Assembly: GCA_965649765.1 (NCBI GenBank)
Contig: OZ287756.1
Coordinates: forward strand, 44,950,001 to 45,014,000
DNA length: 64,000 nt
DNA from: Bispira polyomma
Lineage: Eukaryota
Direction of reading: 5' to 3'
This document shows, piece by piece, positions 6,701 to 48,130 of the stretch. Under the pieces are notes generated by a model that was not told the DNA's origin, made no database searches, and saw only the letters and a list, made by a program, of their open reading frames with translations. The position numbers were made by a program, and so were the translations under genes. Position 1 is the first letter of the stretch. Each line of letters begins with the position of its first letter.

Positions 6701-6929
6701 AAGGGATTTAGGGAAACATCTATGTTACAAAATACTTATACACAGGAGACACCATGAAGTTACCATGAAAGATTCCTACTGTTTCCTAACCCAAACCATT
6801 GTATTTAATCTTCACATCCCTTTAAATGGTTCAGTACCACATATATTGCTAACTGGCAAGTAGAGGTCCACCACAAAGATAAGCTTTTGCCACTCAAAAT
6901 TTGTTTGTTTGCGTTTAATGTAATGCTGT

Positions 6930-7737
6930 TTAGGTTGACGAGTGCACCCACCTTTTTAAAAAGGTTAATAGAAAGAGTTTGATCAGGGTTGCAATATGAA
7001 AAAAGTGATACTTTGAAAACTAAATGACATATTCAAAACAATATTTCAATAGACTAAGAGGGGCCAACCTAAAGCTGTCCCTAGTGTAATCTTTTCCTAC
7101 ATAGATTAGAGGTTATAGGTAATGTTGCGTATTGATCAGTTAGGAGTTGGACAATTCAAACTACTATCAAACAAATTAGAAGCTTCTTCCTATTACCGTA
7201 ATTTCATCAGAAACTTTTCAACAATACTAATTAGACAGACATACACACCTATGACAAAATTTCAATGGACATCAAAATGTAAAAAAGTTTTCAGTAAGCT
7301 TAAGTCTTGTTAAGTAAGTGTACCAATTTTTACATATCCTGATATATCGAACCATTTATCTCAGACACTGACACAAGTACTGTTGGCATAGCAGCAGTAC
7401 TATCACAAAAATCTAATGTTCATTGTACAGAATTGGTACTTACAATTATGCAATCATTCATTGTTCTGTCAAACTTCATGGTAATGACGATGCACCATCA
7501 AAAAGGGCATAATTTAAAGCACGGAATGGTAGTAAGGACAATCATTAGTAACCCAACAAATGATGGAACATCATTTGAATCACGAATTCAGTGTTACACA
7601 TCAGATGATTGAAAAAGCGAGTCACAAAACAAAGACTTGTCATTGATTTTTGGAAGAATAAAGGTGTCAAGCCATCCTGGCATGATATTTTAAGATATTC
7701 TACCACCCTTAAAAGTTACTGGTCACAATGGTACAGG
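6930..7737 (+). mobile_element. Decayed Ty3/Gypsy LTR retrotransposon pol fragment (RT/RNase H)
   Basis: Broken motifs FGLTSAP, YYRNFIRNFS, FQWTSKCKKVFSKLK, DTDTS-VGIAAVLSQ and LKSYWSQW. Confidence 0.8.
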
Positions 7738-7934
7738 TAGACTTGCTTACAAGTCTTTACTGTTGCTAAAGCACTGTATGACGGCTTTTTAAACAGTTCC
7801 TATTCATTCAAAAGGGGGCAGCACCAGTCTTTTTATAACTGCCAGCTTCTTTATTTTATCCAAAATGTCAATCCACACAGGGATATAGAATAAAAGTCAT
7901 AATGCCCTTATTGAGGGACCTTGCACAAGGGCTA
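7738..7934. mobile_element. About 200-bp MITE-like insertion in the Gypsy remnant (also at 21921-22117 and 29909-30106)
   Basis: Imperfect terminal inverted repeats tagacttgcttacaag / cttgcacaagg(g/t)cta, flanked by a near-perfect 9-bp duplication tgggacagg. Removing it at 29.9-30.1 kb restores Gypsy-like WSQWDRLHIR. Confidence 0.6.
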
Positions 7935-7959
7935 TGGGACAGGTAGACTTGCTTACAAG

Positions 7960-8550
7960 GCAAATATCGAGGCTTCCCTACAAAACCCACTCTCATTACC
8001 TTTATTTAATATGTAATGCATTGACTATTAAAGTTCAACTTGCAAAATATTTTGTTCCATTTATATATAGTGCCATGAATAATGACAATCAGGTGTCTTC
8101 ATTGGGCAGTAGACTAGCTATTCAAGGCAGTACTTCTGCAGTTAGTAAAAACATTGTTGTTTTAGCAGATTTAGTGAAATATGATACATACTTTATGTTC
8201 AAAATGCAAACTTCTCACTAAATGAAATTGATAGTCTACTCTACTGAGTCCGATAAAACTATATCTAATGTCATCAAAGACTGTATTTTCTTAAGGGACG
8301 AAAGATCGACCAGGTTTTCTGTTCACGAGTTAACATATATGATCAATGTTCTCTGTATTGATTGATTAACCTGAATTTTATCTACAGTGTCTGATTGTAT
8401 ATCCAATGTATATAGTTTATGTGATTATAGAAAAACTACACACCAGCTGTTTTTTTCTTGTTTTTGTTTCTATTTCCTTCTTTGTAAACATTGTATGTAT
8501 GTCAAATTATTGTGCTGATTGTACAAATACTGAATAAATAATAATAATAC
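7960..8550 (+). mobile_element. 3' fragment of a non-LTR retrotransposon (second copy at 22143-22735)
   Basis: LINE-type C-terminal peptide ISRLPYKTHSHYLYLIC...IKDCIFLRD...ELTYMINVLCID, ending in an aataaa(taa)n tail. Confidence 0.55.
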
Positions 8551-9716
8551 AAACGAAAATCTGAAACTGTGTGACGGTAATATAATTCTACGCTTAAACA
8601 GAGATCTTTCATAGGTGTACATTTAAAACAGCCTAATTAATCTGGTAAAACATTGTTTCATCTCTTGACTAGTGATACAATCATGCGATACACTTGCTTG
8701 TTTATTTCACTTATTTCAATTCCAGATTAGTGTAATCGTTGACAATTCATAAACATGATCAATTGCTATTAAATATATTTTTCCTCACAATTTAATTCCC
8801 TGAATTGAACAATACTTTGATCGCAAGATAGTCTGCATTGCCTGTAGATTGGTAATGACTCACGTGGTTGAGCTAATTAAAGTAAATAAACCAAATTGCT
8901 CATTTTTCAAATGTTGATGGATTTAAGTAATAATTTAACAAACATATTAAATGTTTTAGCTGTTTTTAAATATTTTTAATACAAGACTAAGCCATACTAT
9001 ATCCCTATTTGAATATATTAAGACATATCTATTCATTTGCTGTAAGTTGTTGGTTTGAGGTACAAATGGAAAATGTAATGTAAAAGTAATCCATTGGAAG
9101 TTGAATTATTTAATAGATATGGTTAGATTTTCTAGGTGTCAGATGATATATAGCTTATGAAACAAAACAACAACATAACTATAATCATGTATTTGTGTAA
9201 AAGTGACATACAGTGCACAAAATATAAGATATCTAGCAATAGGTCAAGCGGTTTATGTAGCATATATATATCATAACAGCAAAGCTCAAGTGTTTAAGGT
9301 ATTGATAAAAACAATATGACAATATTGTTACAAGTCGACACACTTTAATGTTACTGGAGAATTATACAGACATACAACTTTAGGTTTGATTTTAGACTTT
9401 AGGGATTCTCTTTAATGTAGGAAATATTAAGCTTAATCAATTTTAGCTCGAGTGTTTAAGTTATTTGTAAAAAACATATTCCTCAATTTGACATACTCTG
9501 GTTGTGGTTTTCATCCAATCTATAGGTATCTGACAAACTTCTCCTGAAGTTATTTTTGAAATCAACTTTTGGTAGTGTTGACTTCTTGATAAGGGGGGGT
9601 TAGAACATAGCAAGCTTTAAAGCACCCCGGAAAGTTCCACTGAGTAAGAAAGATCTACAAGCTTAATGAAAAGAGCTAGCAATATTGATACAAGTTGACA
9701 CACTTTAATTTTCCGG

Positions 9717-12700
9717 TTATTCAAGATTGACACATATTTTGTCTAATTCGCCTGCTCGACAACCTTTTGGTCCTGTAGGCCCTGTACTACCAGTTGCACC
9801 TTGTGACCCTTTGGAACCTGTTGCGCCTGTGTCTCCTCTAGCTCCTCTACTTCCCATGTATCCACTGTACCCTCTGGGTCCTCTAGGCCCTGAAGTACCA
9901 GGTGAACCTTTCTGTCCTTTTGGACCCTGAAAACCAGTGTCCCCTTGCATACCATCTGGACCTGATACTCCAGGTAATACGCCTTGGTTGCCTGTGTCAC
10001 CAATATATCCAGTAGAACCAAGTTGTCCCTTAAAGCCTTTATCACCTGGTTGCCCATTGTCACCTTTTGCTCCCTTTTCTCCTGATTGGCCCAGTGAGCC
10101 CTTTGTCCCAGCTGGACCTGTTAAGCCTCTTTGTCCAGTACTGCCTTGCTGTCCCACAATTCCTGTTATACCTTTAATTCCATTACTTCCTTGTGAACCA
10201 GATATTCCTGCATTTCCACTTCTTCCAGTTGGTCCAGTCTGTCCTGACAACCCAATGACTCCTTCATCACCCTTTTGACCAACTAATCCAGTACTTCCAG
10301 TGTATCCTATATCACCAATAAGTCCTTTATGTCCTTTTATTCCAGTATATCCTGGCAGACCAACAGATCCTCTTGGTCCAGGTTTTCCAGTCTGGATTCC
10401 ATCTAATAAATAAACATAAATTACATGTAATGTTCATGTTAAAAATTGGCCAAAATGGTTATCATTTTTAATTTTAAGCTAATTGTTATGAAATGTGGAT
10501 GTCATTTACTAATACAGATAAAATATAGGTTATATGTATTTCATATTTTATAAAAGGTAGTCTACACAAATAACATAGCTGACACCAAAAAGGTAAATGC
10601 TAACATTAAGTATATCAAAATAGATAACATAAAATTCATATAGCCAAATGAAATCAAATATATTTGTCATTTCAAATAATCATAACTTGTATATTTTATT
10701 CAATCTGAATAGTTTTATCATCAAATGTTTTAATTTACATGTATCCCGATTATTGGATCACTAATATGCCCACATAAAGTAAGTTAGCCATTGATCAATG
10801 AAATTACACAGCACGACCCTAAAGGGGTATGCTTATTCAGTTCCCTTAGCAAATATATACCTTTACCTTAACCCCTAGGGGTCCATTTGAATACTGTTCA
10901 ATGGCCTCTCTTTCGATTGACCAATGGGAGACATTTGAACCCCAAATTTTACCTCTCACATGCTTACCCTACCATATTGAATTTCGTTTTACAAGAGACA
11001 ACATTAGAAATATTTTTGTGGGACACTTAATGATAAAGTGTCTGAACTTTACAGTCTTTTAGTATTTTAGTTTTTTACCTTGGAATGGTTTTAATCATAT
11101 ACATATTGTTTTAACTGTGAATTATATACCGTGTACACATGGGACGAGCTAAGAAAACACCGGCGAAAGCAGCACCCAAGTCGAGACGACAGAAGAAGTC
11201 TACTGTGAAGGGTACAAAGGGTAATGTAGCTTATAGTACTGACATGAATGAAAGTATAATAGGAGACCTACGGGTTCCGTCCGAGCAAGCTCTCTGCTCT
11301 CATCAAAATTCACCTCAAGCGGGAGGTTCCACCTTCCCGATGGCCGCCTCGGTAGATTTACAACACCCGGTGCCACAGATGCTGCAACCCGCTACTTCGC
11401 TTAATACTACCAGTGATAACGTAGCAATATTGACAATGTTGAATCGAATGGAGCAATCCAACGCTGACATAGCCCGTCGGTTGGACCAGATAGAAGCTAG
11501 GGGGCTTACACCGGTACAGACAACTGCCGTGTCCACTACAGCGTTTCAACCGGCTTACGTACCTTCACCAGTGGTGCAGCCTACCAACGGTTATGGAAAT
11601 ATAACCGCCTCGACTGCTTCAGTCGTGCAGCCTGCGTCCGTATCCAGCACAGCGCTTCCACCAGTTTATGTTCAGCCTACCAGCGGTTATGGACATTTGG
11701 TCGGGCCCACTACTACAGCTTCAACCTCAGCTGAATACACACGTGACGGAATTGTTCCTAGGACGGACGTCTTGAGGTCGATGCCCGAGGTGCAAGCCTT
11801 AGTGAATCAGCGGCTGGCTGAGCATGAAGTCAGGGCACAAGCTATCTTTAACCAAGGTAAGGTTAATTCGCGCCAGAAGTCGGGACGTTATAACAATACC
11901 GACACAGCGGCCACAGATCCGCGCATGAAATGGGCTAACGAAGGTTGGAGTGGGGGGTCTTCACGTAAGCGTCCAACGTTTGATGAGCTTTCCCTTCCAC
12001 ATTGGGCTGCAGGGCAGTTGTGTAATGCTTTACTGATAAGTGACAACCAGTTGTTACGGGATATGATCCAGCAAGTGGTACTCTCGCTGAAGGATGCTTC
12101 GTCGCTCCCCTGGGAGGTCGTCCGCACGGCTTGGGCGACAAGCATGCAGGAGGTCGAGGAAGGTCGCCTGACCTGGGACAACACTACTCAGTGGTCGCTC
12201 AACCGAATTAGCGCGTCCCAGACAGTGATGGCTAATTCATCTCACAACACAGGTTCGGCTGGTGCATATACGGGGAGATCCACGATTTGCAAGTTGTTTA
12301 ATTCAGGGAAATGTTCACAGAAGAATGATCATGGAAATTACAAGCATGCCTGTTGGCATTGTGCTACCATTTTGAATAAAGATTCGCCTCATCCTGAGTT
12401 TAAGTGCTACAAGGCCAATGCCACAAAACAGTTAGAAAATAAGCATAGTTAGGACATTGACCGACTACCAGTGAAAGGAACATTAGCAGTGAGTTGTAGG
12501 GACAGAACTGTAGAAACTAACGTATCTAAGTCAATAGATTTAAAAGATAATGGCATTGTAAACTATGACGATGAAGACATTTTGCTTAGCCATTTGCAAA
12601 TTATTCATAATGATAAACAATGCATGCATAATATGATTGATATTAATGATACCGGCATTACTACACAGTTTGAGGGTAACCAAATGGAACATAATGAGCA

Positions 12701-15700
12701 AACAAAGATTATACACGAAAATCGTACACATGTACACACACCTTATGGTGATTCTGGGGATACAACCAATAGAAATAAAAAATTGGCAAGTATAACAGGT
12801 CAAGACAAGTTCCATTTGGGTACCACAGATACTGTAATAGATGTTTCTAATGTTGGTGTTCAATGTCCACAGGACAGGGAAAGTAGTGGTCATAATGTGT
12901 TACATTCCACACAAGCATATGTGGAGATTTCGAAAACAAATTGGGAATTTTGCACCGAGATTGGGGGACCATTGTTCCCCGTGGTTTTCGTGAACTCTGT
13001 TCACTCAGAAATTAATGGGTTTTATACCTGGAGGGATGGGGGTCACACAAAAGGGAGTGCATTGGAAAAATGTCTTGGCACTCCAATAGGTCCTATTTAT
13101 ATTTTAGAAAAATTCTATACACAGGTAACCATCATGGAAAGTCATGAGGACATTATGGATGTTCATAATGTATACATTCCTACGGATACTGATCACATGG
13201 TGGCTAGAAATACCTCCTATCATTATAAGAAAGACATTGAATGTCAGCATCGGCATAATGTTAATTATACTACATATATAACTAACTTAATCCATAAGTT
13301 GATTGAAGCTGATGATATAGTCACACAGCCATTTCATAATTGTACAAACTTGGACATGCATGAAGGGAAGACAAAACTTCATTGCAAGGACAAGTCGCTG
13401 GATGGAGGACAAGCAAATATCACAGTGTATGAATTTAAGGATCATGGTTCCGAGATAGATAGTCAGAATAAGGCAATTAAGGATTTTAACTTTCCAGATA
13501 AGGATAAGGGTTTCATTCCTTTAAGTCATACAGAATTTGAATTCTGTGGCCCAGATAGGGCTCCAATTAAAATTGCTACAGTGCAACAAATGGTGGATAT
13601 AGCTCACACAATCAAGGATTCTGGTTGTGCCAATTATAAGGGTGCCAGAATACCAATAGCTTCTGAATTACAAATCCAGGCTTGGGAGAAGGTTTTGATT
13701 GATTATCCGGATAAGTTGTTACTCCAATATTTAACTTTTGGGTTTCCACTTTCTCTTGAGCATTCTGAAAATTTAACAGTTAAGGAAGTTTCTAATCATA
13801 GTTCTGCCCTGCAACATGCAGAGGCAGTTAGTCAATATATCAGTAAGGAACAAGTTCATGGTGCCATGTTAGGTCCAGTTAAGAAAGTCGATAGCGAGTT
13901 GTTTCACTGTTCCCCCTTACTCACTCGTCCTAAAGACGGAAATAAACATAGAGTGATCCTTAACCTCTCTTATCCGGAAGGCAGTTCAGTTAACAGTAAT
14001 GTAGATAAGCAACGCTTCGATGGAGTCGAATTCGCTTTAAAGTTCCCTACCATAGATGACATTGTAGCAAAAATCAGGGATACCGATAATCCTAAGATAT
14101 TCAAATTGGATATTTCGAGGGCATTTAGGAATTTAAGAATAGATCCGGTCGATGCCATGAAGCTAGGTATCTGTTTTAATGAATATAAGTACATTGATCC
14201 GGCTATGGCGTTCGGATGGATACACAGATCCGGAGCTTTTCAGAGATGCTCTGACGTCATAGCTTACACCATGCGCAAACGTAAACATACTATATTTTGC
14301 TACATTGATGACTACATCGGAATATCACCTGCTCATGAGGCAGAAGGCGCTTTTAACGATCTTTATGAGTTAGTAACGTCCTTGGGTCTTCCCCTGAATC
14401 CGGACAAGATCTCACGTCCTAGTACAAGTCTAACTTGCCTGGGGATAGATATTGACATAGAGGAGGGCGTTATTAGTATTTCCAAGGAAAAATTGGAACA
14501 AACTTACGAATGTTGCCAACAAGCTTTTAATAAGAAGTGGATGTCTAGAAGAAATTTCCAATCTGTTTTAGGCAGGCTTCTATATGTTCATAAGTGTGTT
14601 AAGCCGGCTAGGATTTTTATAAATCGATTATTAATGGCTTTCAGGAAGAATGCTCATGCCAAGCGATTTCATATTACTAATGATATCAAAGCAGATTTGC
14701 TCTGGTTTATACGGTTTCTTCCCTTGTATAATGGCATAACTTATATCGATCCAATAATTCCTCCTCACCAGAATGAAGTATTCATTGATGCGTGTTTAAC
14801 TGGTTTAGGGGGGCTTTATACTGACCAAGTTTTTGCTTCTCCATTTTATAACATCTATAATCAGCGGCTGTCTATAGTGCACATTGAAATGCTTAATATA
14901 TTAATTGCCTTGCGTGTGTGGGGGATACAGTGGAAACATAAGAGAATAATTATTAACTGTGACAACATGGCTGTGGTACTGGTAGTTAGGTCTGATAAGA
15001 CTAAGGACCAATTTTTAGCTTTATGTTTAAGGAATATGTGGCTGCTTACTGCAGCTTATGACATTACTTTGGTCATTCAGCATGTTAGGGGGAAGGACAA
15101 TACTATAGCAGACATTTTATCAAGGTTATACTCAGATCACCCACCAACTGGTCACCAGGTCGACATGTTACAAACAGGATATAAATGGCATAGTATTCCT
15201 ATTCACTACTTTAACTTGAATTTAAATGTTTAATTGTAGGAACCAACACCGTGACTCAACACCTTATGAATTCTGCATGGAAACGGGTCTCTTCAGCATT
15301 ACGTCCAAAGACTACTGCTACATACAACCAACAGTTTAGAACTTTCGTTGCTTTTCTTATATTTGTTGGCATACAGGACATTTCAACTAATTCTGTTATA
15401 GCATTTTTGGAGTACCTGGCGCAAAACGGCTCTTCCCCTAATGTTTTAACCAACCATTTATCAGCTCTAAAGTTCACAGCTAACAAACTATATTGGAACC
15501 AAAATATTTTCGAAAATCCTTCAGTTGCCATGTTTATTAGGAGTTTGTCACATTCTTCTACTTTTAGACCTCAACCTAGGGGTATTTTTGATATTACACA
15601 TTTACAACAGATATCTAAAGCATGTGACATTCTGGGGGATCCCCCATTATATAGGGCAATATTTCTGGTGGCATACTTTGGATTCCTTAGAATCTCAAAC

Positions 15701-16604
15701 ATTGCTCCACATTCCAGAAATAAATTTGACCCAACGCGTCATTTCCTTAGAAAGGATGTTGTGTTTGGCCATCCTGGAGCTCATTTAATACTTAAATGGG
15801 CTAAGAACTTACAAAATAGATCAGAACATCATGTAATTCAATTACCCCAACTGCAGAATATACATTTGTGCCCAGTCAGGGCACTTCATAAATTGTTAGA
15901 TTCAAGGCCTTTGCCTGTAGAGTGTCCACTTTTTGTTACTGCAAGTTGTCCTCATGTTCCCATTGTGGAGACTCATGTCAGACATTCTTTAACCTTGGTC
16001 TTACAACATATAGGTATACCACACAGAGGTCATAGTTTCCACACATTTAGAAGGTCAGGAGCTACCTATGCTTTTAACAATAACGTTTCTCTCCAAAACA
16101 TTATGTCTCACGGGTTATGGAGATCTTCAGCAGTCTGGGTTTATCTTCAGAAAACTCCTCAGGCTGCTGCAACTATTCCCCTTGCCTTTGCTTCTTCTAT
16201 CCCTTCTTCCCTTTAGTTTGGCTTGGGATATTTTAAAATTCTCTCTTTAAATTTTAAAAAACTTGAAAATTTTTAACCTACCCTGTATATACCTTACTAA
16301 TGTGTATATAAAATAAACCTCAAACTACTATCTATTAATTTAATTTACTTCACCTGTAATTACTACAAGGTCACATAGTCTGCTTCTTAAACTCTATATC
16401 TTTACCTCACTTTGCGAACAGGAGAACTGGAGTATAAATACCTAAAATGACATATTTTATTTGTGTCCAAGCATTCTTCATCATCTGTATATCCGATTTT
16501 AGCATCTTTACCACATCTCTGCAACCGAGAATCTGGGGTTTTGTTGTGTATTGTCCAAATGTAGATGAAATACAACCAAAACACAAAACATAGAAAAATA
16601 ACAT
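9717..16604 (-). CDS. Short secreted collagen, chain B, copy 1 (exons 16604-16442 and 10402-9717; 282 aa); intron carries a 5.6-kb YR retroelement
   Basis: Signal peptide MLFFYVLCFGCISSTFG, phase-1 GT-AG intron, 70 Gly-X-Y triplets with one interruption, C-terminal GCRAGELDKICVNLE. Confidence 0.88.
11139..12452 (+). CDS. Gag-like ORF1 of the Ngaro-like element
   Basis: 437 aa with a basic N-terminus, a heptad segment (LNRMEQSNADIARRLDQIE) and a C-terminal Cys/His cluster CKLFNSGKC...HACWHC...HPEFKC. Confidence 0.9.
   Translation: MGRAKKTPAKAAPKSRRQKKSTVKGTKGNVAYSTDMNESIIGDLRVPSEQALCSHQNSPQAGGSTFPMAASVDLQHPVPQMLQPATSLNTTSDNVAILTMLNRMEQSNADIARRLDQIEARGLTPVQTTAVSTTAFQPAYVPSPVVQPTNGYGNITASTASVVQPASVSSTALPPVYVQPTSGYGHLVGPTTTASTSAEYTRDGIVPRTDVLRSMPEVQALVNQRLAEHEVRAQAIFNQGKVNSRQKSGRYNNTDTAATDPRMKWANEGWSGGSSRKRPTFDELSLPHWAAGQLCNALLISDNQLLRDMIQQVVLSLKDASSLPWEVVRTAWATSMQEVEEGRLTWDNTTQWSLNRISASQTVMANSSHNTGSAGAYTGRSTICKLFNSGKCSQKNDHGNYKHACWHCATILNKDSPHPEFKCYKANATKQLENKHS
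12453..15233 (+). CDS. Pol ORF2 (uncharacterised N-terminal region, reverse transcriptase, RNase H), in frame with gag
   Basis: Motifs SPLLTRPK...RVILNLSYP, KLDISRAFR, YIDD, DACLTG, CDNMAVV and NTIADILSR. The frame is open from the codon immediately after the gag TAG. Confidence 0.95.
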   Translation, partial: DIDRLPVKGTLAVSCRDRTVETNVSKSIDLKDNGIVNYDDEDILLSHLQIIHNDKQCMHNMIDINDTGITTQFEGNQMEHNEQTKIIHENRTHVHTPYGDSGDTTNRNKKLASITGQDKFHLGTTDTVIDVSNVGVQCPQDRESSGHNVLHSTQAYVEISKTNWEFCTEIGGPLFPVVFVNSVHSEINGFYTWRDGGHTKGSALEKCLGTPIGPIYILEKFYTQVTIMESHEDIMDVHNVYIPTDTDHMVARNTSYHYKKDIECQHRHNVNYTTYITNLIHKLIEADDIVTQPFHNCTNLDMHEGKTKLHCKDKSLDGGQANITVYEFKDHGSEIDSQNKAIKDFNFPDKDKGFIPLSHTEFEFCGPDRAPIKIATVQQMVDIAHTIKDSGCANYKGARIPIASELQIQAWEKVLIDYPDKLLLQYLTFGFPLSLEHSENLTVKEVSNHSSALQHAEAVSQYISKEQVHGAMLGPVKKVDSELFHCSPLLTRPKDGNKHRVILNLSYPEGSSVNSNVDKQRFDGVEFALKFPTIDDIVAKIRDTDNPKIFKLDISRAFRNLRIDPVDAMKLGICFNEYKYIDPAMAFGWIHRSGAFQRCSDVIAYTMRKRKHTIFCYIDDYIGISPAHEAEGAFNDLYELVTSLGLPLNPDKISRPSTSLTCLGIDIDIEEGVISISKEKLEQTYECCQQAFNKKWMSRRNFQSVLGRLLYVHKCVKPARIFINRLLMAFRKNAHAKRFHITNDIKADLLWFIRFLPLYNGITYIDPIIPPHQNEVFIDACLTGLGGLYTDQVFASPFYNIYNQRLSIVHIEMLNILIALRVWGIQWKHKRIIINCDNMAVVLVVRSDKTKDQFLALCLRNMWLLTAAYDITLVIQHVRGKDNTIADILSRLYSDHPPTGHQVDMLQTGYKWHSIPIHYFNLNLNV
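15240..16216 (+). CDS. Tyrosine recombinase ORF3 (probably reached by splicing, exon start 15240)
   Basis: Catalytic signature R (GFLRISN), K (WAKN), HxxR (HTFRR), H/W (HGLW) and Y (VWVYL). Confidence 0.93.
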
Positions 16605-16817
16605 TTTTAGCCTATCTTTAAATATAATATTTAACTTTGTCCCGTCCTTACTTACACAGATCTGAATTCTGAATTAATGTTTTCAGTCGTCATAAGTGTG
16701 TACTATATGATATATTGGCAACTTTCCAAGGTCGTAATATATGTACCAAATATACAAAGAGGAAGACAATTTCTATATTGTGGGCCTCAGTTTAAAGAAT
16801 ATAGGGAGACATCAAAC
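16605..16817. promoter_or_regulatory. Putative bidirectional promoter between divergent collagen genes, copy 1
   Basis: Only 213 bp separate the two oppositely oriented ATGs. Promoter function is inferred from geometry alone. Confidence 0.6.
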
Positions 16818-17994
16818 ATGTTAAATATGCCTGTTTTTCATATTTTAACAATTTTAACATTATCCTTTGTATTGGTTTCTAGCCAAAAAACTTTTCAGTG
16901 TGGATTATTTATGTGTGACAGCAAAATACAGTACTTGGTTAATAGCATAGATACTTTAAAAAGAGAATGGGCACAGGCAAAGAAAATATTATCAGGAATA
17001 GTTTTAAATGTACATATTATGAGCTACAATTATAAGTTTAAATATGATGTCAATAAGAAATATTGACAAACCTGTATTGATAGATTTCTGGCTAATTACT
17101 TTTATGTTATAAAATGTTATTTATTGGTTATTATATTATACCTCTCTGTCTGCAAGTGCATATAATAAGTAAGATAATGAAGTTTATTCATATAACCCTA
17201 TTTCTAAAATTACTAAAGCCACTTTTTTATAGTTTTTTCAAATAAAACAATATTTGCTTCTGATATACTTTACAGTTAGTAAAATGTTCAAAACACTGTA
17301 TAATATTAAATACATTAGACATATTCTATTTTCAGCAGGCAACTTGACGGGGGAGCCTGGACCAGTTGGCTTTGCTGGTCAACTGGGTGCAACAGGCTAT
17401 ACTGGAAATGTTGGACAACCCGGTGAAAGAGGCAAGCTTGGAGACACAGGGTATACTGGGGCCACAGGCCCAGATGGGGTTGTTGGAATTAAAGGCCTAG
17501 CGGGTCCTATTGGTGATACCGGATTACATGGGATCAAAGGGTTTCCTGGACAACAAGGTCCTAAAGGGATTAATGGTGATACTGGAGCAACTGGTGCACA
17601 GGGAGTACAAGGTTCCAAGGGACTGTTAGGATCCAAAGGTGAACCAGGTCTTAAAGGATACAGAGGGGTGAAAGGTGGGTCAGGATCAACAGGAGATAAA
17701 GGTCAACAGGGTTCAGAAGGTAGACGTGGCAATAAAGGCATTAAAGGTCCAGATGGAGGAAGAGGTGTGATGGGTCCAATTGGACAGAATGGTGCCAGAG
17801 GATATTATGGTCCATCAGGTGATAAAGGTCCAGAAGGTGCTCCTGGACCACCAGGCTCTAGGGGTAACCGCGGGAACAATGGGGCTTCAGCCAAGGGCGA
17901 TACTGGTGATACTGGATACACAGGTGGAAGTGGTGAACGTGGAAGTACAGGACACACAGGCTGGCCTGGTCCAGCTGGTAGATATATAAAGTGA
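16818..17994 (+). CDS. Short secreted collagen, chain A, copy 1 (exons 16818-16995 and 17336-17994); splice donor mutated, possible pseudogene
   Basis: Signal peptide plus 70 Gly-X-Y triplets. The donor reads GA at 16996-16997 where copy 2 has GT. Confidence 0.8.
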
Positions 17995-20900
17995 GCAATG
18001 GATTTCTGCAAAAAACGACAGTTCTTATGCTACAGTTGTCACTTATATGTATTAACTTCAAACATGACATTTTGAAATAAATTTAGATTTGTGAGAAAAT
18101 CCAGCAGTATAACATCTGATAATGAAAGACAGTTTGATATATATTAACTTTGATTCATGGCTCTTTAATTCAGAGGCCATGTTTAAAATACTGATTATAT
18201 ATTTAATTAGTGGTGTCAATTTATATTGAACTCTAATATTCCATTCCAGAAATTTTGATTACTTTAGCAAATAACATGTTTGCTAAAAGAAACAGCTTAA
18301 CTTGAAATAGCAATAAATTTTAGATTTATTTGTGTTTTAATATTGCATGATTATTGTCAGATTTTAAATGTTTATCTGTGGAATATTTCTAATAATAAAT
18401 ACAAATATGGAAGCAATTTATTGAAATCATGATTAAAATATTTCTTTAAGTGTACCGAATATTAAAAATATAATAAATTGTTTCGCAGAATACTTTTTAA
18501 GCACCAAAGCCTCACGTTCAAATAAATTGCACCTTGTATCACATCGCATATTGATGTAGCATAATATTTATATGGCTCGCATTTAAGGTTGATTAAAATT
18601 GAAATTTAAGGAAAAGTTTTTTCAAGTTAAAATAGTTAAAGTAATGCAGCCTGTAGCTTTGTTTTAAGTTTTACTATAGGTAATATTTAACAGTTAACGT
18701 CAATTTAAATTAATTTTGAAATTTTAAATTTTAAAAAAGAATAATTAAAAAAACTAACATGTCTGTTGATCACATCCACAAATCTGAGTTTTTCGCTATT
18801 GATATGGTTTGCAGCATTTATTTTTAAAAGTGTGGCCCAATCACTCCCAAAGTTTTTGACATGACTGGAAATAGAAAATAGGGAAGTTTTTAAAAATAAT
18901 AATTGTAAGCATAAACTCTGATTATTGATATTATCTTGCCATACTTTGCCATGGGGAATTGTGATGTTCAGTAATGTGAAAAGGAATCATCTCTAGAATA
19001 TGGGCCTCGGGATATTATTTTATGTGGCAGTAATTAAGTCTAATGCCATTTTGTCTGCAGCTGATATTGCGATTAGAAAACTTCATTTCCAGAACAGCTA
19101 TTTCATATTATATTAAGTTATTATTGTCTTGAAGTTAAGTCACATGCTACTTCTTAAAATATGAAAATAACAAAGGTAACCCTTAAGAGGAAAAAGAGTT
19201 TTTTAATGTATCAGATCATTGAATTGTGAATGCAATGATGTCAATTCGATGTTTTCTAATCGTAACAATAACCATGTAAATAATTTGATTCAAAATAAAA
19301 CTACCAGTAACATACACATTTGGATATAATTAGGTATGTTTACCAGTGTACACATTGTCAATAATGTCAATTAAAATTAATGCCTGTCAAAACTTCCTTG
19401 TCTTTTAAAATACCGCTATGTATGTTTGTCTGCGTCGGTTTGCATAAGGAATATTTGTGCGCCTGATTGACATTTGTTGATGGCTTTAATTGTAATTTAA
19501 TCCTACTTTGAGGTGACTTAAAACGTTTGTATTAGTTTATGTTTACGACAGCTTAATTAAAATGGCATAATCAATGTTACTGTTCATACATCTCCACGAT
19601 CTTTTGTTCACCCAAAGTTATTGGAATCAGTGACAATTAAACAAACTAATCAAATTTATAATAAATATTTGTACCAATACAGTTGATCACACTCTAGTCC
19701 CCTTAACCAAAAGATTTATCGATGCCAAATATATATTTAATCAAGTTGGGAATCCTAACCGAGAGCATATAACAGGTATAATTGGTAAAGGCCGTGGGGT
19801 CAACTCTCGAAGTTTGTCATGTACTTTGTTGTAGGTTGTTGCTTTACAGTACAAATATTCAGTGAACATTGATTTTGGTTGGTTGTACCTTTGGTAGCAC
19901 ATATATCACCTAAAGTCAGAGTAGATAAGATTGCTGATTTCCACCACCAATAAATCCTGCTGCCAAATATATTGCAATAATAAATTAAAATATATATCAT
20001 GAAAATATTGAATCTTATATTTAATATAATTAATACAATAATAATAATAAATATTATTCATTAGATATAGCACATTTTGAACATCACTGTTATCAAATGC
20101 GCTTTGACATTATTACCCCAGCCTGGGTTCTACCACTTGTCAACCAATTGTTCAGTCTCAGCTCCCTCAGGAAGCATAGTAGCCGTGCAGCCACATATGG
20201 CACAAGTCTGAAAACACCCATTAGAACCGTGGCTCTGAGATCACTCAGATCAAAAGCCTGACAGTCTAACCGCTTATTATAAGAGAGTACTAAAGCTTGT
20301 TGAATTAAATTTTTCATTTTCATTCCTCTTTTTGCATTTTACAACCCTGAGAGTAATTTAACTGAAATGTTTAAATGTGTTTAAAGAGTGAAAGATTTGT
20401 TGGAACTAAAATTGGAAAACTGCAATTATTTTATTAAATGGGTGTTGGTATTAAAGTGCCTATCATTATAACAATTCAGTAAACAATTATCTTGCGATAA
20501 GTTAAAGATTCAGTAAAGCAAGGAAAGATATACATTCATTGGGGTGTACAACGCCATGTTTTCATGTTACCCAAAAGCTGTGAGATTTTGGCATCTCATA
20601 TGCTATGTTTTTGAAAAGCCTTTTTAATGCAAATGCAAAGTCTACAAAGATTTGTGTGGATATAACATACACATTTAAAGTATTTTCTGTGTATATTTAT
20701 GTACATCAATTTTCATTGAATTATTTTGTCCTATTATTAAATTATTTTCTAGTCGGCTTTTAAACATTTAGTTTAAAAAGCATCAATGCAATTTTTCTTC
20801 ACAGAATATGATATGGGTTGAATAACCATAGAAAGATGTGTTTGCAAATTTTATTCTATTTTTATTTTTATAATAAAGCAAACAAAGGATTTAGGGAAAC

Positions 20901-21112
20901 ATCTATGTTACAACATACTTATACACAGGAGACACCATGAAGTTACCATGAAAGATTCCTACTGTTTCCTAACCCAAACCATTGTATTTAATCTTCACAT
21001 CCCTTTAAATGGTTCAGTACCACATATATTGCTAACTGGCAAGTAGAGGTCCACCACAAAGATAAGCTTTTGCCACTCAAAATTTGTTTGTTTGCGTTTA
21101 ATGTAATGCTGT

Positions 21113-21920
21113 TTAGGTTGACGAGTGCACCCACCTTTTTAAAAAGGTTAATAGAAAGAGTTTGATCAGGGTTGCAATATGAAAAAAGTGATACTTTGAA
21201 AACTAAATGACATATTCAAAACAATATTTCAATAGACTAAGAGCGGCCAACCTAAAGCTGTCCCTAGTGTAATCTTTTCCTACATAGATTAGAGGTTATA
21301 GGTAATGTTGCGTATTGATCAGTTAGGAGTTGGACAATTCAAACTACTATCAAACAAATTAGAAGCTTCTTCCTATTACCGTAATTTCATCAGAAACTTT
21401 TCAACAATACTAATTAGACAGACATACACACCTATGACAAAATTTCAATGGACATCAAAATGTAAAAAAGTTTTCAGTAAGCTTAAGTCTTGTTAAGTAA
21501 GTGTACCAATTTTTACATATCCTGATATATCGAACCATTTATCTCAGACACTGACACAAGTAATGTTGGCATAGCAGCAGTACTATCACAAAAATCTAAT
21601 GTTCGTTGTACAGAATTGGTACTTACAATTATACAATCATTCATTGTTCTGTCAAACTTCATGGTAATGACGATGCACCATCAAAAAGGGCATAATTTAA
21701 AGCACGGAATGGTAGTAAGGACAATCATTAGTAACCCAACAAATGATGGAACATCATTTGAATCACGAATTCAGTGTTACACATCAGATGATTGAAAAAG
21801 CGAGTCACAAAACAAAGACTTGTCATTGATTTTTGGAAGAATAAAGGTGTCAAGCCATCCTGGCATGATATTTTAAGATATTCTACCACCCTTAAAAGTT
21901 ACTGGTCACAATGGTACAGG
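21113..21920 (+). mobile_element. Decayed Gypsy pol fragment (duplicate of 6930-7737)
   Basis: Same motifs; the ORF at 21305-21496 translates identically to 7122-7313. Confidence 0.8.
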
Positions 21921-23861: not shown

Positions 23862-25126
23862 TTATTCAGGATTGACACATATTTTGTCTAATTCGCCTGC
23901 TCGACAACCTTTTGGTCCTGTAGGCCCTGTACTACCAGTTGCACCTTGTGACCCTTTGGAACCTGTTGCGCCTGTGTCTCCTCTAGCTCCTCTACTTCCC
24001 ATGTATCCACTGTACCCTCTGGGTCCTCTAGGCCCTGAAGTACCAGGTGAACCTTTCTGTCCTTTTGGACCCTGAAAACCAGTGTCCCCTTGCATACCAT
24101 CTGGACCTGATACTCCAGGTAATACGCCTTGTTTGCCTGTGTCACCAATATATCCAGTGGAACCAAGTTGTCCCTTAAAGCCTTTATTGCCTGGTAGCCC
24201 ATTGTCACCTTTTGCTCCCTTTTCTCCTGATTGGCCCAGTGAGCCCTTTGTTCCAGCTGGACCTGTTAAGCCTCTTTGTCCAGTACTGCCTTGCTGTCCC
24301 ACAATTCCTGTTATACCTTTAATTCCATTACTTCCTTGTGAACCAGATATTCCTGCATTTCCACTTCTTCCAGTTGGTCCAGTCTGTCCTGACAACCCAA
24401 TGTCTCCTTTATCACCCTTTTGACCAACTGATCCAGTACTTCCAGTGTATCCTATATCACCAATAAGTCCTTTATGTCCTTTTATTCCAGTATATCCTGG
24501 CAGACCAACAGATCCTCTTGGTCCAGGTTTTCCAGTCTGGATTCCATCTAATAAATAAACATAAATTACATGTAATGTTCATGTTAAAAATTGGCCAAAA
24601 TGGTTATCATTTTTAATTTTAAGCTAATTGTTATGAAATGTGGATGTCATTTACTAATACAGATAAAATATAGGTTATATGTATTTCATATTTTATAAAA
24701 GGTAGTCTACACAAATAACATAGCTGACACCAAAAAGGTAAATGCTAACATTAAGTATATATCAAAATAGATAACATAAAATTCATATAGCCAAATGAAA
24801 TCAAATATATTTGTCATTTCAAATAATCATAACTTGTATATTTTATTCAATCTGAATAGTTTTATCATCAAATGTTTTAATTTACATGTATCCCGATTAT
24901 TGGATCACTAATATGCCCACATAAAGTAAGTTAGCCATTGATCAATGAAATGAGTATAAATACCTAAAATGACATATTTTATTTGTGTCCAAGCATTCTT
25001 CATCATCTGTATATCCGATTTTAGCATCTTTACCACATCTCTGCAACCGAGAATCTGGGGTTTTGTGGTGTATTGTCCAAATGTAGATGAAATACAACCA
25101 AAACACAAAACATAGAAAAATAACAT
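23862..25126 (-). CDS. Short secreted collagen, chain B, copy 2 (exons 25126-24964 and 24547-23862; 282 aa)
   Basis: ATG, signal peptide, 416-nt phase-1 GT-AG intron and open Gly-X-Y domain. Confidence 0.92.
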
Positions 25127-25339
25127 TTTTAGCCTATCTTTAAATATAATATTTAACTTTGTCCCGTCCTTACTTACACAGATCTGAATTCTGAATTAAT
25201 GTTTTCAGTCGTCATAAGTGTGTACTATATGATATATTGGCAACTTTCCAAGGTCGTAATATATGTACCAAATATACAAAGAGGAAGACAATTTCTATAT
25301 TGTGGGCCTCAGTTTAAAGAATATAGGGAGACATCAAAC
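25127..25339. promoter_or_regulatory. Putative bidirectional promoter, copy 2
   Basis: 213 bp between divergent ATGs, matching 16605-16817. Confidence 0.6.
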
Positions 25340-42226: not shown

Positions 42227-45200
42227 TGAAGTGACCAGTCACTTTTACTTTGAAGCAGACTCGTGCAAGGCAAAGCCAGGGATAACTAGATTTAAAGTTT
42301 GGAGAGTTTATTTACATGATTTAAATCTTCAACTGTACATAAAAATTTAGGATAAAATAAATTTTTATAAACCCCATATAAATGAGTATAAACTAAAAAT
42401 TATAAAATGCTTGATAAAACTATAACGTGTATAATCAATCAAATTATGTCATAACTTGTGTAGGTATAAACTGATGAATATTCATCATTAAATATAAATA
42501 AAATATATATATCCTCCAATTTATTGGGTGGAGGGTGGGAAATTTTTCCACTTCTTGACACTTTGGTCACTAATTATTTAATGCCACATATGAGAAAAAG
42601 GAGGGAAAACCTTCCTCTATACTGTTTCTGATTAGCTAGCAGGTTAGTAAACAATTTAAGAGAGGGACCTTCCTTTAGCTAAGCTGTGATTGGCTTTAAG
42701 TCAATACCCACAGGTGTGTGGACACAGATACAGTAAACTACTGACTTTTAGCGACTGACTGGTCATGCTGTCTATGACCCCGCAGTGACTTACACAGTCG
42801 CTTTTACGTTGAAGCAGACTCGTGTAAGGCAAAGCCAGGGATAACTAGATTTAAAGTTTGGAGAGTTTATTTACATGATTTAAATCTTCAACTGCACATA
42901 AAAATTTAGGATAAAATAAATTTTTATAAACCTCAATAGCCGTAAATGTTTGAGGTATTATCGAAGCAGCATTAGTAGTTGAGTCAAGGTAGTGCCAAAT
43001 GGCATCGGATTTCCAGCACCCGTGTTTCTGAATATTTTGGAGCTTTATATTTGCATTAAAGGCCAATGAGGCACCTGATCTTCGCAGGCAATGAAAAGTA
43101 TGGCCTTGATGAAGAATACCCAGTTTTACTAATAGAGATCTTAATGCCTCTCTTAATTTTGATTCTGAGATGCATTTACCCCTGTAGCCTTTTGAAACAG
43201 GGCTCTAGCAGAAGTAACTGGGCGAAGCCAGACATTTTCCAAACACGAGAGCTGGATAATATTTACATTTTCTCTTGATTGGTTGGTCTTAGACCACTTA
43301 AGGACCAAGTGTATGCCTGGTGGAGCAAAGAGTACATCAGCCCTCGTGAGGTGTCGAGAGGGGTCAAAAGTGTTTGAAGTTGAGGGGGCTAGATTTGAAA
43401 TCCTTAAGAACCCAAAGAATGCAAATAAAATCGCAGTTCTGTACAACTCTGGGAAAACCAAAGTTTCACATAGTTTTGATATTTCTTGCAATTGTTTCAT
43501 GTCCAAAATGCCTTTAGGTTTAGGTGTAAACCTTGAGTTAATTGCTAAAGATTTCTGATACATAGTAATTCGATAGTCATATAACTGATGACTCTGAATG
43601 TGAAGCACCTTACATGAGTGACGAATAGCTGCAATGTAATTGTTAATAACTTTGTGTAAAATATTGATGTAAATATTCCATGAATGCAAGCAGAGAGGTG
43701 AACAAAAAGTGGTTGTCTATGTTATGGTAAACCATGAAGGCCATGTACAGTCTGAATTGTCTGTCGTATTGTCTCCGTGTTCTTGGACGCTGGCTGTCTT
43801 TAATTTTCGTCATAGCGTCAGAAATGAGGGTTCTGACTGCTAGAGGGTTACCTGTAATTATATATCATTATTCATTAAAAATAAGTCAACCTTAACTTCA
43901 TTCATAACAAAGTTACTTAAAATTTCTCTTTTCATTTCATAGCTATGAATACCTAGTTTATGCCATCTAGATAGGACGTCTGCTACAATATTCTTTTTTC
44001 CCTCTATGTGTCTTATGTTAAGGTTAATATTGTAATTTGCACAAACGAGCCATAAGTTTCTTAGACACCTGCTTAAATAGAGGTCCCTAGTTTTGGAGGA
44101 CTGCACAACAGAGACAACTGCGGCATTGTCTGACTGTATACTAACTGTTTTATCCTTGAATTTGTGTTTCCATAGTCTTATTGCTACCAGTAAACTCAGC
44201 AACTCAGAGTGAACTAGCGACAAAGATTGCTTAATACATAAGGGCAAGATGGCAGTGAATACATCACTGTCAGATACTCCACCGATGCCTTCTAAACATG
44301 CATCTACCTGTAATGATGTAGTTTGTACTATGTCATCACTTTGAAACTTTGTAGTGCCATTATAGTCAAAAAGGAATCTAAGAAACCAGTCTCTCTTAAA
44401 GTCCTGGTTTAAAGTTATAGTCTTGTCACTTGTCAAGTTTCTCAGTATATTTAGCATTCTGTTCATAAAAATCCTTACTGGTTTAATGCATCTATGAATA
44501 TAGAGCAATTTCCCCAGCAAGAATTGATATTTATTTTTTCTTACTTTATTCAGAGGAATAAATTCCCTACACGTTTCGTGTATTGATTGTAATTTATCTT
44601 TGTCTATGCTCAAAGATTTTTCACACACGTCAATAGTAATTCCCATACATGTTACACGTGTACTCGGCGGTACCAATTTGTCTTTGTTTATGGGGAGACC
44701 AAGGTCACTCAGTATTTTCTTCAGAAATTCGAAAGCTAAGGTCGCCTTACTCTCAGATTCTACGATGACAAAATGACGTCAGAGTTAAATCCACGTAATA
44801 ATTATGTTTCCAACTGTAGCCGAGTTTAAGGCAGTCAAAAGGGTCGACTCGCAAATTTCTAAAGGCGTGAGCCACGTCGACCTTTGCTATTTTTGCTGTT
44901 GGACCAATATGTTTAATTTGGTCGACTATCTGATCAATAGTTGGTAGTTTTAAAGTAAACCCGATATGGTCATATTCACTTTTAATGGTACAGTCATTTA
45001 CTGACGCCCCATTTGGGTGAGACAGACTTAAAATGAATCTTCTCTGTCCGTCGTCCTTTGGACGTGTCAATAAAGGAGAGCAATGTACTTCTTTGTTGTC
45101 GAGTGAACTAAAAGGGCCAATAATAGTACCTTTATTTACTTCTTTGGTAAAGTACCGGTCAACGTATTCAGGAAATTGTAAAGCTGAGTAGTGATTCTTC

Positions 45201-48130
45201 ACTTTTTGTGTGTTTAATCGATTCCTTTCATAAAAGGATATAGGAAAGCCATATTCCAAGTACTGCAGCAGTTGCTGATCTGGATAATCGCTTAAGTAGT
45301 GTTTCTACTGGTCTATATTAAGTCCAGAAATAATAGGGATTCTTGCATTCTGGTAGTTTGGCTGACCCGTCTCTTTAATTGTGTCAGCTATTCTTATTGG
45401 AGTAGCATAATCCTTAATATCGACTGGTTCTATACTTGGACATACAAGCTAAAACTTTGTGATACTGTGAGGAATAAACCCGTACTGTCTTATTGGATTA
45501 CATTCCCTATCATGTTCAGTGTCAACATTATTGAGTTTGTCTTCATCTAAGAAATGTGTGAATAAGTTGTCATTCTCACACATGAGTTCCTTGTGAGTAT
45601 TACTGTCGTTTCCTAACTGTCCCTGCCTAACGTTCAAGTCCATCTGTCTGGTAAGTGACTTGTTCATTATGTTATGAGGTGATGGTTTCTTGTGTGTTGT
45701 ACAAGTGTGATGTGTATTCTTCGTATTAGAATGAGCACGAGCTGTATTACTGTTGTGTAATTGTTCCTCATACTGTGTTCTAACCATGTCACCTGTTTCA
45801 CTAATCTGCATGTAACTAGAAGGTATAACTATATTACACAGTTTGTCCATGATGTCAATATAATAGTTTGCTTGCCCTATTTTTGCCCTTACATGTGAAG
45901 TTTTGTTGTGCTTAAATCTGTCAGTGTGATCATATGTCTTGTCTGTATGTATGTTTTTGCTTGGTTGTGGTAAATGATGTTTGAATTTTGAATTGGGATA
46001 ATTAACGTCCACTCTAGTACCTGTTTAGGTTATATTGGGACGGGTAGTTGGAAACGCTGGAGGAAACACTGCATACAGTAAGGAACTACCACCTTTCCCA
46101 CATAGGCATCGACGGGATTCGAACTCACGCCGCCCAGAGGTGAGAGACCAGTGATTGTGAAGCGCAATGCTTGCTAACCACTAGGCCACCGTGGCCCCGG
46201 TAAATGGTGTGCTACTATAACTGTCTGTGTGTAGTATGATAGAGGCCATACATCCTTTATGTTATGATCAGTTTTCATGAATGTTGCCTGAAATACATTA
46301 TTGTAACACAACTTATATACACCATTTAGGTTAGTATCACTTCTACACATAATATAAAACAGTTGGTTAGCATTATAGTTCACATTATAACTTCTATATA
46401 CATCTACAGTAACCCATTTGTATTCAGCAGTGGTCTCTGTACTACCATTAACTTGCACTACCTCATTACTAATTTTAGTGCTAACACTATATGACATATC
46501 ACTTGACCTATCTATATTCATAGTTTCAAAAGTACAAATTTGTTTGTCTTTTCCTAAATTAATAAATTTATCACATAAACTATTCTCATTGTCATTGTCT
46601 GTATTTTCCAACACATTGCCATAGATACTACTGTTGGTGCTAACTGGTTCATAAACAGTTGCCTCTGCACACAGCCTCCTGTCCTATTGGGTAGTAATGC
46701 TGGTAGATTGAGGTTTCCCGTTGAGTTTAAAACATTTTGATTCTGGATGGACATTCTCTCGCTTGTTAACTCTAAAAAAATTTGCACAAATATGTTTAAA
46801 ACTCGTAGTGTTGTTCTCATGGTCACCCGGGTGTAAACACTGGCCCCTCTGATAGTGCCTACAAGGCACCTTAGATTTTGTCGCGTTGATCGTGGTTGAG
46901 GCTGACATGGAAGCCTGAGAACACGAGATCCTGTTCATGCTCCATTTGTTTTCATCCGCCCAAGTCAGTCGCCCCTCTTCCAGATCATGCATGTTGCTCG
47001 CGTAGGTGGCCTTGGCCACCTGCCATGATATATTACTCACGTCCCGTAGAGTGTCCCCTAACTGCCTTAACATCGCTCTAGCTGTTGCTGCATTTCTAAC
47101 CTCCAAAATATTTTGAATTTGGCCTGAAGCAAATTGTGAAACAGTTAGATCATCATAAGCCGACAGTTTTTTAGAAAGGCCGATCAAACAGCTCTCATTC
47201 GGCCACCTGTACTGGGGGTCAGTAGTACATTTTTCTGAAGTATTAAAACGTCCAGATCTTTTTTTAGAATAAAGCTTACCGTGAAGTATGTCGTCGGTAG
47301 CCATGGACTCATATTGTGCCAACCTGTGGTTCACTTCGTTTTGTATGAGGGCAGAATGTCTTAATACGATTCCATTCCTGTGTCCACTGTTGCTCAGGGG
47401 TTGGGTAAGAAGGCCTGTCTGGGTTAATCGGCGTTTTGTATGTGCCCCAGTATGGATTCCCCACTGTCGAAGGCGCGTTATGGGGTTAACGGGTACTGAT
47501 GGACCCTACTGTCAGTCGTCCTGCTTCCAGTTTGTCAATCTTGCGTTGTTTGCCCCTGTGTGGGTTGTACTAAGGTGGTGGTGGGGGATGTGCGATATCA
47601 AGGAGTAGTTACAGGTGTGATTTTTGTAATGTGATCTTGACTATAACTCACGTTTCTTTGTAGGCAGTCATCCTGGCTAGCTTCCCCCGACGTCCTCATA
47701 ACATCCTCCTGAATCGTGGAATCACCACCCTGAGCCTTTAGTTCTGTGACATCCTTCTGTAGTGTAGACACGGATTGCAGTATAGTGTCCATCATTTCTT
47801 GCTGTTTTCTGCATATTTCTTCATAGGGATTGACACCGTGTTCACCTTGATTAGTCATCTCGCTGCTACCAGCCATTTCGCTGTCGCTAATGGGTTTCTC
47901 TGTAATAACTGTATCCAAGACACGGTTTTTCAAACACCTTACGCCAACCGGTCTCTCATGTTTTATTTTACATTTTGAACACTCGGCCAACTCATGTTGA
48001 CTCTGCCTGGTTTTTCCCTTTCCCATTATGGTATCACTACGTTTCCTACTGGTTACGACGTATCTTCCCATTAGTTACTACTTTACACATAAAAACACAC
48101 TAAAAACACTAAAACAAGTAAAAGTTGTAA
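42227..48130 (-). mobile_element. Near full-length decayed Ngaro-like element with split direct repeats
   Basis: gag (48071-46684, frameshifted), pol (46683-43858; frameshifts, SINE insertion, YxDD region deleted) and YR (43851 to about 42935, frameshifted). A 138-bp direct repeat lies at 42236-42373 and 42795-42932. The 5' terminal repeat was not found. Confidence 0.92.
46002..46198 (-). mobile_element. tRNA-derived SINE inserted in the pol N-terminal region
   Basis: Starts GGGGCCACGG, with A box TGGCCTAGTGG, B box GTTCGAATCC and tail gagtggacgttaa. Confidence 0.85.

Follow-up and report, generated by a model that had tools for sequence, protein, structure and literature searches.

Stop codons lying in frame between gag and pol are already known from MLV and from the LTR elements Tca2 and Tj1/Tosmo. 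In the available portions of the respective papers, UAG-G contexts of type III are described as generally requiring a downstream structure (PMC13517186), a simple long-range helix is described for PLRV readthrough (PMC9553062), and the 300-nt junction of Tca2 is described as having failed by itself to drive readthrough (PMC2194720). Ngaro elements are defined, as far as the accessible text goes, by split direct repeats, the order gag - RT/RNase H - YR, and the lack of a methyltransferase (PMC4157794, PMC3266345). The accessible parts of four Ngaro descriptions (PMC4157794, PMC3266345, PMC9210276, PMC3783388) give the ORF layout without the expression mode of pol or YR, and no expression mechanism was seen in the available text of PMC8547959, PMC6681497, PMC3266345, PMC9210276, PMC3783388, PMC7192593, PMC4157794, and PMC12440569. 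The openly accessible literature yielded nothing on readthrough, a stop codon, frameshifting, or splicing in DIRS/Ngaro elements, and nothing on long-range pairing with readthrough in retrotransposons. In the literature searched, a readthrough design with a distant helix is described only for RNA viruses.

The window, a stretch of 64,000 nucleotides on the contig labelled G000:C9 of a 1.04-Gb animal assembly, carries element 1 on the plus strand and element 2 on the minus strand. Their features are as follows (bases after the gag stop are numbered from +1).

10805..16429, plus strand: element 1, a copy of an Ngaro-like YR retrotransposon; there is an empty site in a tandem duplicate, and the ends match 8 other copies
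10805..11016, plus strand: terminal repeat A, 212 nt; 7 of 8 sister copies have it again behind B1, the eighth in part
11139..12452, plus strand: gag-like ORF of 437 aa (coding part 11139-12449, followed by the stop), with C-terminal Cys/His zinc-knuckle-like motifs
11854..11862, plus strand: predicted splice donor, phase 1; cut 11856/11857, intron from 11857
12450..12453, plus strand: gag stop TAG (12450-12452) and the following G, predicted readthrough site
12459..12473, plus strand: proximal arm of the predicted long-range helix, +7 to +21; -26.6 kcal/mol, second of 374 windows
12453..15233, plus strand: pol ORF of 926 aa with a variable region of about 370 aa, RT, and RNase H
14977..14992, plus strand: distal arm of the predicted helix, RNase H codons directly 3′ of the Asp-Asn motif
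15234..15240, plus strand: predicted T-rich splice acceptor, phase 1, 6 nt 3′ of the pol stop; cut 15239/15240
15240..16216, plus strand: tyrosine recombinase exon/ORF of 324 codons, with Pfam Phage_int_SAM and Phage_integrase
16224..16429, plus strand: terminal repeat B, 206 nt, from repeat comparison with sister copies
46683..46686, minus strand: gag stop TAG and the following G of element 2, a degenerate copy of the second clade
46655..46679, minus strand: proximal helix arm of element 2, +5 to +29; -38.7 kcal/mol, best of 427 windows
44095..44121, minus strand: distal helix arm of element 2, RNase H codons; Asp codon at 44130

In element 1, a single strand encodes first gag, then RT/RNase H, then YR. 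Its pol matches Pfam RVT_1 (E 6e-8) and RVT_3 (E 1e-4) and ends about 35 aa past the RNase H match, and no methyltransferase domain was detected in Pfam scans. The Pfam scan of its gag gave zero matches, while a protein search in an ENA-derived set gave 13 relatives at 44-53% identity; a PDB sequence search gave a weak RT match alone (E 0.043). The split direct repeats A1...B1-A2-B2 behind YR are complete in 7 of 8 family-1 copies (the eighth is partly deleted) and are also found in four other families. The copy in the window has A1 - ORFs - B1 only, lacking the A2-spacer-B2 tail of its sister copies. Judged by these sequence features, element 1 appears to fit the published Ngaro definition. 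It was named Ngaro-like rather than Ngaro because the tree of this study holds no named reference element. A DIRS1-like or PAT element was considered and rejected, there being neither a methyltransferase nor a terminal inverted repeat.

Several other observations were made on these loci. In sister copies of element 1, a non-coding 663-nt spacer separates A2 from B2, and the arrangement A1...B1 without the A2-spacer-B2 tail is shared by the window copy (to 16429) and three clade-3 copies (set L241-L248). The region 8000-27000 of the window is a tandem duplication, 98-100% identical, with collagen-repeat exons on both strands, and element 1 lies in one copy. The empty site is in the other copy, at 24951/24952, without a clear target duplication; the empty-site joint was seen in sequencing reads, which may derive from the tandem duplicate, and no insertion polymorphism is claimed from it. 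The region between the gag stop and RT (12453-13560 in the window) measures 300-450 aa in intact families and is open in all of them, nearly unalignable, and with dN near dS; it is a long spacer or a fast-evolving domain. A tRNA-like insertion, the SINE of the sequence-only reading, splits the pol of element 2 at about 46200-45990 (minus strand); Rfam and ARAGORN made zero calls on the window, this insertion included. The gag N-termini of clade 2 (L085, L091, L097, L106) have an extra Cys-x2-Cys...His...Cys motif which is absent in clade 1. The element group is very abundant in this genome and has several young families; the first-look genome-wide candidates numbered 6,838-8,249 for gag and 10,699-21,249 for RT.

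According to the sequence-only reading, gag and pol stand in frame across a single UAG in both elements. This was confirmed: the pol of element 1 is open to 15233, giving 1364 residues if read through, and element 2 has the same junction, with TAG at 46686-46684 (minus strand) and 169 open codons beyond. The lack of a nearby ATG was also borne out, the first in-frame ATG of element 1 pol being codon 58 in a weak context. On the other hand, the shared TAG-GAC-A did not hold up, since A at +4 is present in only 12 of 30 family-1 copies and 18 of 40 families.

Is this junction common among the copies of the genome? With three gag queries, thousands of candidates came up, and the scored matches numbered 150, 150, and 136. 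From these, 166 distinct loci were taken, namely the best 30 per gag search plus copies chosen across identity and open-frame classes, the longest frames included. I analysed 153 of them directly and inspected the 13 set aside later; there are 40 families, which make up two clades and hence do not represent 40 independent origins. The gag stop is TAG in 151 of the 153 loci and TAA in two. A displaced pol frame or a sense codon in intact copies had been named beforehand as the observation that would speak against readthrough; in fact, all 40 family representatives have TAG, and pol is in frame in the 14 intact families. Element 2 belongs to a family with TAG at the gag end in 8 of 8 copies. Among the 13 set-aside loci, four have TAG-G behind an earlier stop or shift, three are without the junction, and six have a sense codon (three TGG, GAG, TAT, and TTG), so that TAG is retained in 155 of the 166 gag-anchored loci. 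None of the six sense-codon loci has an intact pol; four of them had been selected for their long open frames, and one, L179, is the sole copy seen of its family. Of 14 pairs compared at the gag end, 10 have a dS that is saturated or between 1.7 and 2.4, and the remaining four are within-family pairs. Although synonymous sites are near saturation, no family has replaced TAG by TAA. The pol stops of the 14 intact families, in contrast, are TAA in 10, TGA in four, and TAG in none.

Two broader searches were also made. A degenerate junction pattern had 604 matches in the genome against 386 for a control, with a gag match in 5 of 20 loci fetched; these 20 loci were excluded from all counts as circular. 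A search for fused Gag-Pol among longer proteins, a weak test, gave three matches of 992-1054 aa and a gag match in 0 of 123 pol proteins.

The in-frame arrangement by itself would also be seen if UAG were a sense codon of the host, or if the stop were a shared inactivating mutation. As for the former, TAG ends the YR ORF in five of nine intact families (TAA in three, TGA in one). As for the latter, the young families, whose copies are more than 99% alike and whose terminal repeats are 100% identical, all carry TAG. The chance that either explanation applies is next to nil.

In the 14 intact families, the pol frame is open from the gag stop to the pol end, with 944 stop-free codons before the first Met, while the other frames have 12.9% stops. 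These codons bear on another explanation, in which translation of pol starts at a downstream AUG, either because ribosomes reinitiate past the gag stop or because an internal promoter lies at the junction. Tca2 offers a precedent with a minor internal promoter, according to the available text (PMC2194720), and the first 100 pol codons are nearly neutral at the protein level (dN close to dS). Yet the AUG is not conserved: the first Met of pol lies anywhere from codon 16 to 269, in weak contexts, and in 12 of the 14 families, the first AUG past the gag stop is not in the pol frame. A stop-free stretch of this length speaks against such initiation, which also leaves TAG in 40 of 40 families unexplained; it is therefore very improbable. 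Readthrough, by comparison, needs the frame to be kept through the junction, and the spacer indels do keep it (+3 in one family, -9 in one copy).

The bases following the stop are also conserved. Among the 40 families, G+1 is found in 39, C+10 in 33, C+13, A+18, and G+19 in 35 each. Thus, the UAG-then-G of type III readthrough signals is found in 39 of 40 families; the type III hexamers UAGGGV, UAGGUA, and UAGGAU account for 11 families, and UAGGAC occurs in 23.

What structure follows the stop? The sequence-only reading had folded a hairpin by hand in each element, starting 8-9 nt after the stop, and compared the arrangement to that of MLV. The hairpins were no better than chance (six windows, z +0.1 to +1.5). 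The stem of element 1 has a pair probability of 0.02-0.04, and the outer stem of element 2 has 0.01, although its 5-bp inner stem reaches 0.69-0.85 in a 53-nt window. Across the 40 families, the mean z of local folding is +0.23 for 60 nt and +0.30 for 100 nt, and structure below z -2 was found in 3 of 40 and 1 of 40 families, respectively. A local H-type pseudoknot or stem-loop of the gammaretroviral (MLV) kind was not found in these local scans, which were secondary-structure folding. The spacing, in contrast, was right: pairing begins at +7/+8. The likeness to MLV thus survives in the in-frame UAG-G and the spacer of about 8 nt and fails in the local stem-loop; the partner strand is not a nearby hairpin arm and lies about 2.5 kb downstream.

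The bases from +7/+8 to about +30 after the stop have a predicted pairing partner in the RNase H codons, about 2.5 kb further on. In a discovery scan, the best perfect helix to +1..+30 was searched for in each of the 14 intact elements, and a partner recurred 238-255 nt upstream of the pol stop in 11 of them, at the codons after the RNase H Asp-Asn motif. In element 1, the Asp codon is at 14961, and the pol stop lies about 245 nt downstream of the distal arm. The helix was then assessed in 86 copies of 37 families (three of the 40 families have no RNase H site in the data). When about 420 windows were ranked, the RNase H site came first in 72 of the 86 copies, in 29 of the 37 families, and in 19 of the 23 families outside the discovery set; in 34 families, it was among the top three. 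The distance between the arms is 2240-2881 nt in 34 families and shorter in three deleted copies. By position, only 5-14 of the 37 families are paired at +1..+6, and 32-36 are paired at +8..+19. The predicted covarying helix thus supplies the structure that a type III signal is expected to have some 8 nt past its stop.

The pairing is specific to each family. The cognate duplexes have a mean energy of -33.1 kcal/mol versus -21.0 kcal/mol for cross-family duplexes, and 0 of 10,000 permutations, whose shuffles ignore kinship, reached the observed cognate mean, overall or within each clade. In 18 disjoint sister pairs, the cognate pairing is stronger than the swapped one in 15, with one tie and two favouring the swap. 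When the distal codons were redrawn synonymously, p was at most 0.05 in 35 of 37 families, and the cognate excess disappeared when the distal window was slid by 45-135 nt or the proximal one by 40-120 nt. In clade 1, +14 is paired in 20 of 20 families (G-C in nine, U-A in seven, A-U in three, C-G in one), and covariation is seen at +17 (C-G in 13, U-A in five) and +19 (G-C in 16, A-U in three). In clade 2, +15 and +21 are paired in 13 of 17 families with five pair types each. In a fixed register, the covarying sites fall at wobble positions of the distal codons, and the register is shifted by one base between the clades, tracking Leu versus Ser in the distal codon. The sense pairing is stronger than the antisense pairing in 28 of 37 families, which is expected for RNA because RNA allows G-U pairs.

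The helix is not equally strong everywhere, and its evidence is comparative throughout and comes from one genome. Element 1's own helix is modest; it is not the best in the reverse search, and it ranks 17 of 296 among all long-range helices of the element. The reverse search, starting from the RNase H site, picked the junction as the top partner in only 26 of 37 families. A seed-based all-against-all scan of the 14 elements ranked the helix first in three, second in two, and lower in six, and missed it in three. In the weak-helix families L083, L122, and L128, which are old, 8-28 windows score better.

Foamy viruses make Pol by alternative splicing. A corresponding mode here would join the gag donor to a YAG at +17..+19 or use the TAG-G of the stop itself as an acceptor. 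The conserved A+18 and G+19 are in phase 1, like the conserved donor, and among the eight families without this AG, four have a phase-1 YAG at +22 or +28 and a fifth at +25. However, three multi-copy families (9, 4, and 2 copies), whose pol is open for 920, 694, and 568 codons, have no phase-1 YAG within 60 nt, and where the AG is lost, the distal arm has changed in compensation. The conservation of the YAG at +19 is thus attributed to complementarity to the distal codons. The T content at -20..-4 is 0.14 for the +19 site and 0.18 for TAG-G, versus 0.53 for the YR acceptor; TAG-G has no conserved phase-0 donor to match, and the phase-0 GTRAGT sites in the gag N-terminus provided none. Frame-keeping spacer indels would also be needless under splicing. 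This route to pol is improbable, and readthrough of the gag UAG is preferred.

For the recombinase, splicing is predicted. The sequence-only reading had proposed that, with a splice, one transcript could yield Gag, Gag-Pol, and Gag-YR, and this scheme is supported at the level of conserved signals. The signals for a gag-to-YR splice exist in element 1 (donor 11856/11857 and acceptor 15239/15240, both phase 1, with YR open for 324 codons). A phase-1 donor lies 580-640 nt upstream of the gag stop in 34 of 40 families, all 14 intact families have a T-rich phase-1 acceptor 6 nt past the pol stop, and YR is open for 324-326 codons in the acceptor phase in nine intact families. Three sequencing runs behave as DNA, because the flanking intron DNA is evenly covered and neither a donor nor an acceptor joint is seen; they therefore bear on neither splicing nor expression. 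Both helix arms are inside the predicted intron, the distal arm about 250 nt before the acceptor.

A third clade (L191-L220; for example, G000:C7:25975431-25980167 and C5:58130818-58135545) was found by an RT query from a more distant protein. At its gag end, 26 of 28 loci with a gag match have a -1 slippery heptamer, followed 6-9 nt later by a GC-rich local stem (z -0.5 to -3.4 in seven copies), and in 13 copies the -1 frame of pol stays open for 816-849 codons. The phase-1 donor is kept in this clade, about 600 nt upstream of where gag ends, and a T-rich phase-1 acceptor with YR open for 324-333 codons was found in four of seven copies checked. The helix between the junction and RNase H is absent in the eight copies assessed, the junction ranking 5-55 of about 460 windows. 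In an unrooted tree, each of the three groups forms one side of a well supported branch. Five rows of the tree are long-branched, their copies being frameshifted in the aligned stretch, and no order of readthrough and frameshift is claimed from an unrooted tree.

It was also considered that the helix serves another job in the unspliced RNA, such as splice restraint or aid, export, packaging, protection from NMD, or a template jump in reverse transcription, readthrough then coming from the UAG-G context or an unseen signal. The position of both arms within the predicted intron would suit such a job, and covariation indicates pairing, not purpose. Against this, the start of the helix is fixed 7-8 nt from the stop, and the frameshifting clade keeps the donor and acceptor, yet has no helix. 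A separate job for the helix is accordingly unlikely, though less so than any other alternative above.

Metagenomic relatives were analysed as 80 loci, giving 32 distinct families with a long pol. The junction is an in-frame UGA in seven, a +1 overlap in 11, and a -1 site in one; four are broken and nine lack a knuckle. The seven UGA loci (L261, L263, L264, L279, L307, L310, L325) have UGA-C in six and UGA-U in one, with the gag zinc knuckle in frame with pol. L324 has UGA-CUAG at the junction and is broken. In the 11 families with the +1 frame, pol overlaps gag by 80-686 nt, and the single -1 family has a slippery site. No equivalent helix to the RNase H site was found in these relatives; recurrent best partners at about -170 to -195 relative to the RNase H motif were set aside as weak (-20 to -35) and probably due to G-rich codons. 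A gag-profile scan of metagenome and viral contigs gave zero matches, as did an RT scan of the viral contigs.

The in-frame junction gag-UAG-pol does exist and shows strong conservation. Because of TAG in 40 of 40 families, the frame-keeping indels, the 944 stop-free codons, and the recoding signals in the sister groups, programmed readthrough at the gag UAG is well supported as a prediction. Whatever the helix does, readthrough very probably occurs there. Recoding appears to be the usual way in which Gag is fused to Pol at this junction, though the signals differ.

The likely mechanism is UAG-G readthrough stimulated by the predicted 2.5-kb helix, giving a minor Gag-Pol. Most ribosomes would terminate at UAG and produce abundant Gag. 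The unspliced RNA would form the helix. Once UAG occupies the A site, the helix, 7-8 unpaired bases on, would meet the mRNA entrance of the ribosome, to judge from MLV, alphaviruses, and PLRV. It may slow termination, so that a near-cognate tRNA is inserted at UAG; occasional readthrough would give the minor Gag-Pol beside Gag. A splice joining the gag donor to the acceptor downstream of pol would remove the stop and the helix and give Gag(N)-recombinase. More speculatively, the signal may be self-limiting, since both arms have to be opened by any ribosome reading past the stop.

A wider reading is held with a little more confidence than doubt: the Ngaro-like RT would be made by recoding, in two animal clades via a kilobase helix from the gag UAG to wobble positions of RNase H, which would be the first case in a retroelement or a nuclear-transcribed animal RNA. 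The junction would swap between UAG-G with a distant helix, UGA-C, -1 frameshifting, and a +1 overlap, and the recombinase would be made by splicing. If true, this answers how elements of the DIRS order set their Gag:Pol:YR ratios; readthrough signals would then escape local reporters and local folding scans, and the decoding of a stop could be governed by synonymous codons in a remote enzyme domain. It would also suggest why the Tca2 junction alone failed, since a distant partner could explain that failure. The model is directly testable, and dozens of natural compensatory variants are at hand.

How does the locus compare with the known systems? Described Ngaro elements share gag - RT/RH - YR on one strand, the lack of a methyltransferase, and split repeats, as far as the available text shows (PMC4157794, PMC3266345, PMC9210276, PMC3783388), and differ from those of this study, which have a 660-nt spacer between A2 and B2. 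Tca2, Tj1, Tosmo1-3, and Tcry1 also have gag and pol in frame across one stop; they are LTR elements using UGA, with no long-range partner described in the accessible portions (PMC2194720, PMC10085805). Moloney MLV shares gag-UAG-G-pol in frame and about 8 unpaired bases before the structure, which is a compact local pseudoknot in MLV, whereas none was found here in local folding. In CIRV, the distal element reportedly pairs with the bulge of a local stem-loop. The RdRp of this tombusvirid shares UAG-G of type III, kilobase-range pairing (more than 3.5 kb there), and a polymerase made by readthrough; its distal element is in the 3′ UTR, whereas the partner here is coding and there is no local stem (PMC13517186, PMC9553062, available text). 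The PLRV CP signal (PRTE/DRTE) and the extended stem of alphaviruses share UAG, a short spacer, and a simple helix with distant arms, and the distal arm of PLRV lies, like here, within the readthrough coding region; the loop is about 670 nt in PLRV and 100-150 nt in alphaviruses, versus 2.2-2.9 kb in 34 of 37 families here (PMC9553062, in the parts accessible). In contrast to both, the distal arm here consists of RNase H codons, and its role is predicted from sequence. Readthrough helices of long range are well known from plant RNA viruses; the one predicted here spans 2.5 kb in an animal retroelement.
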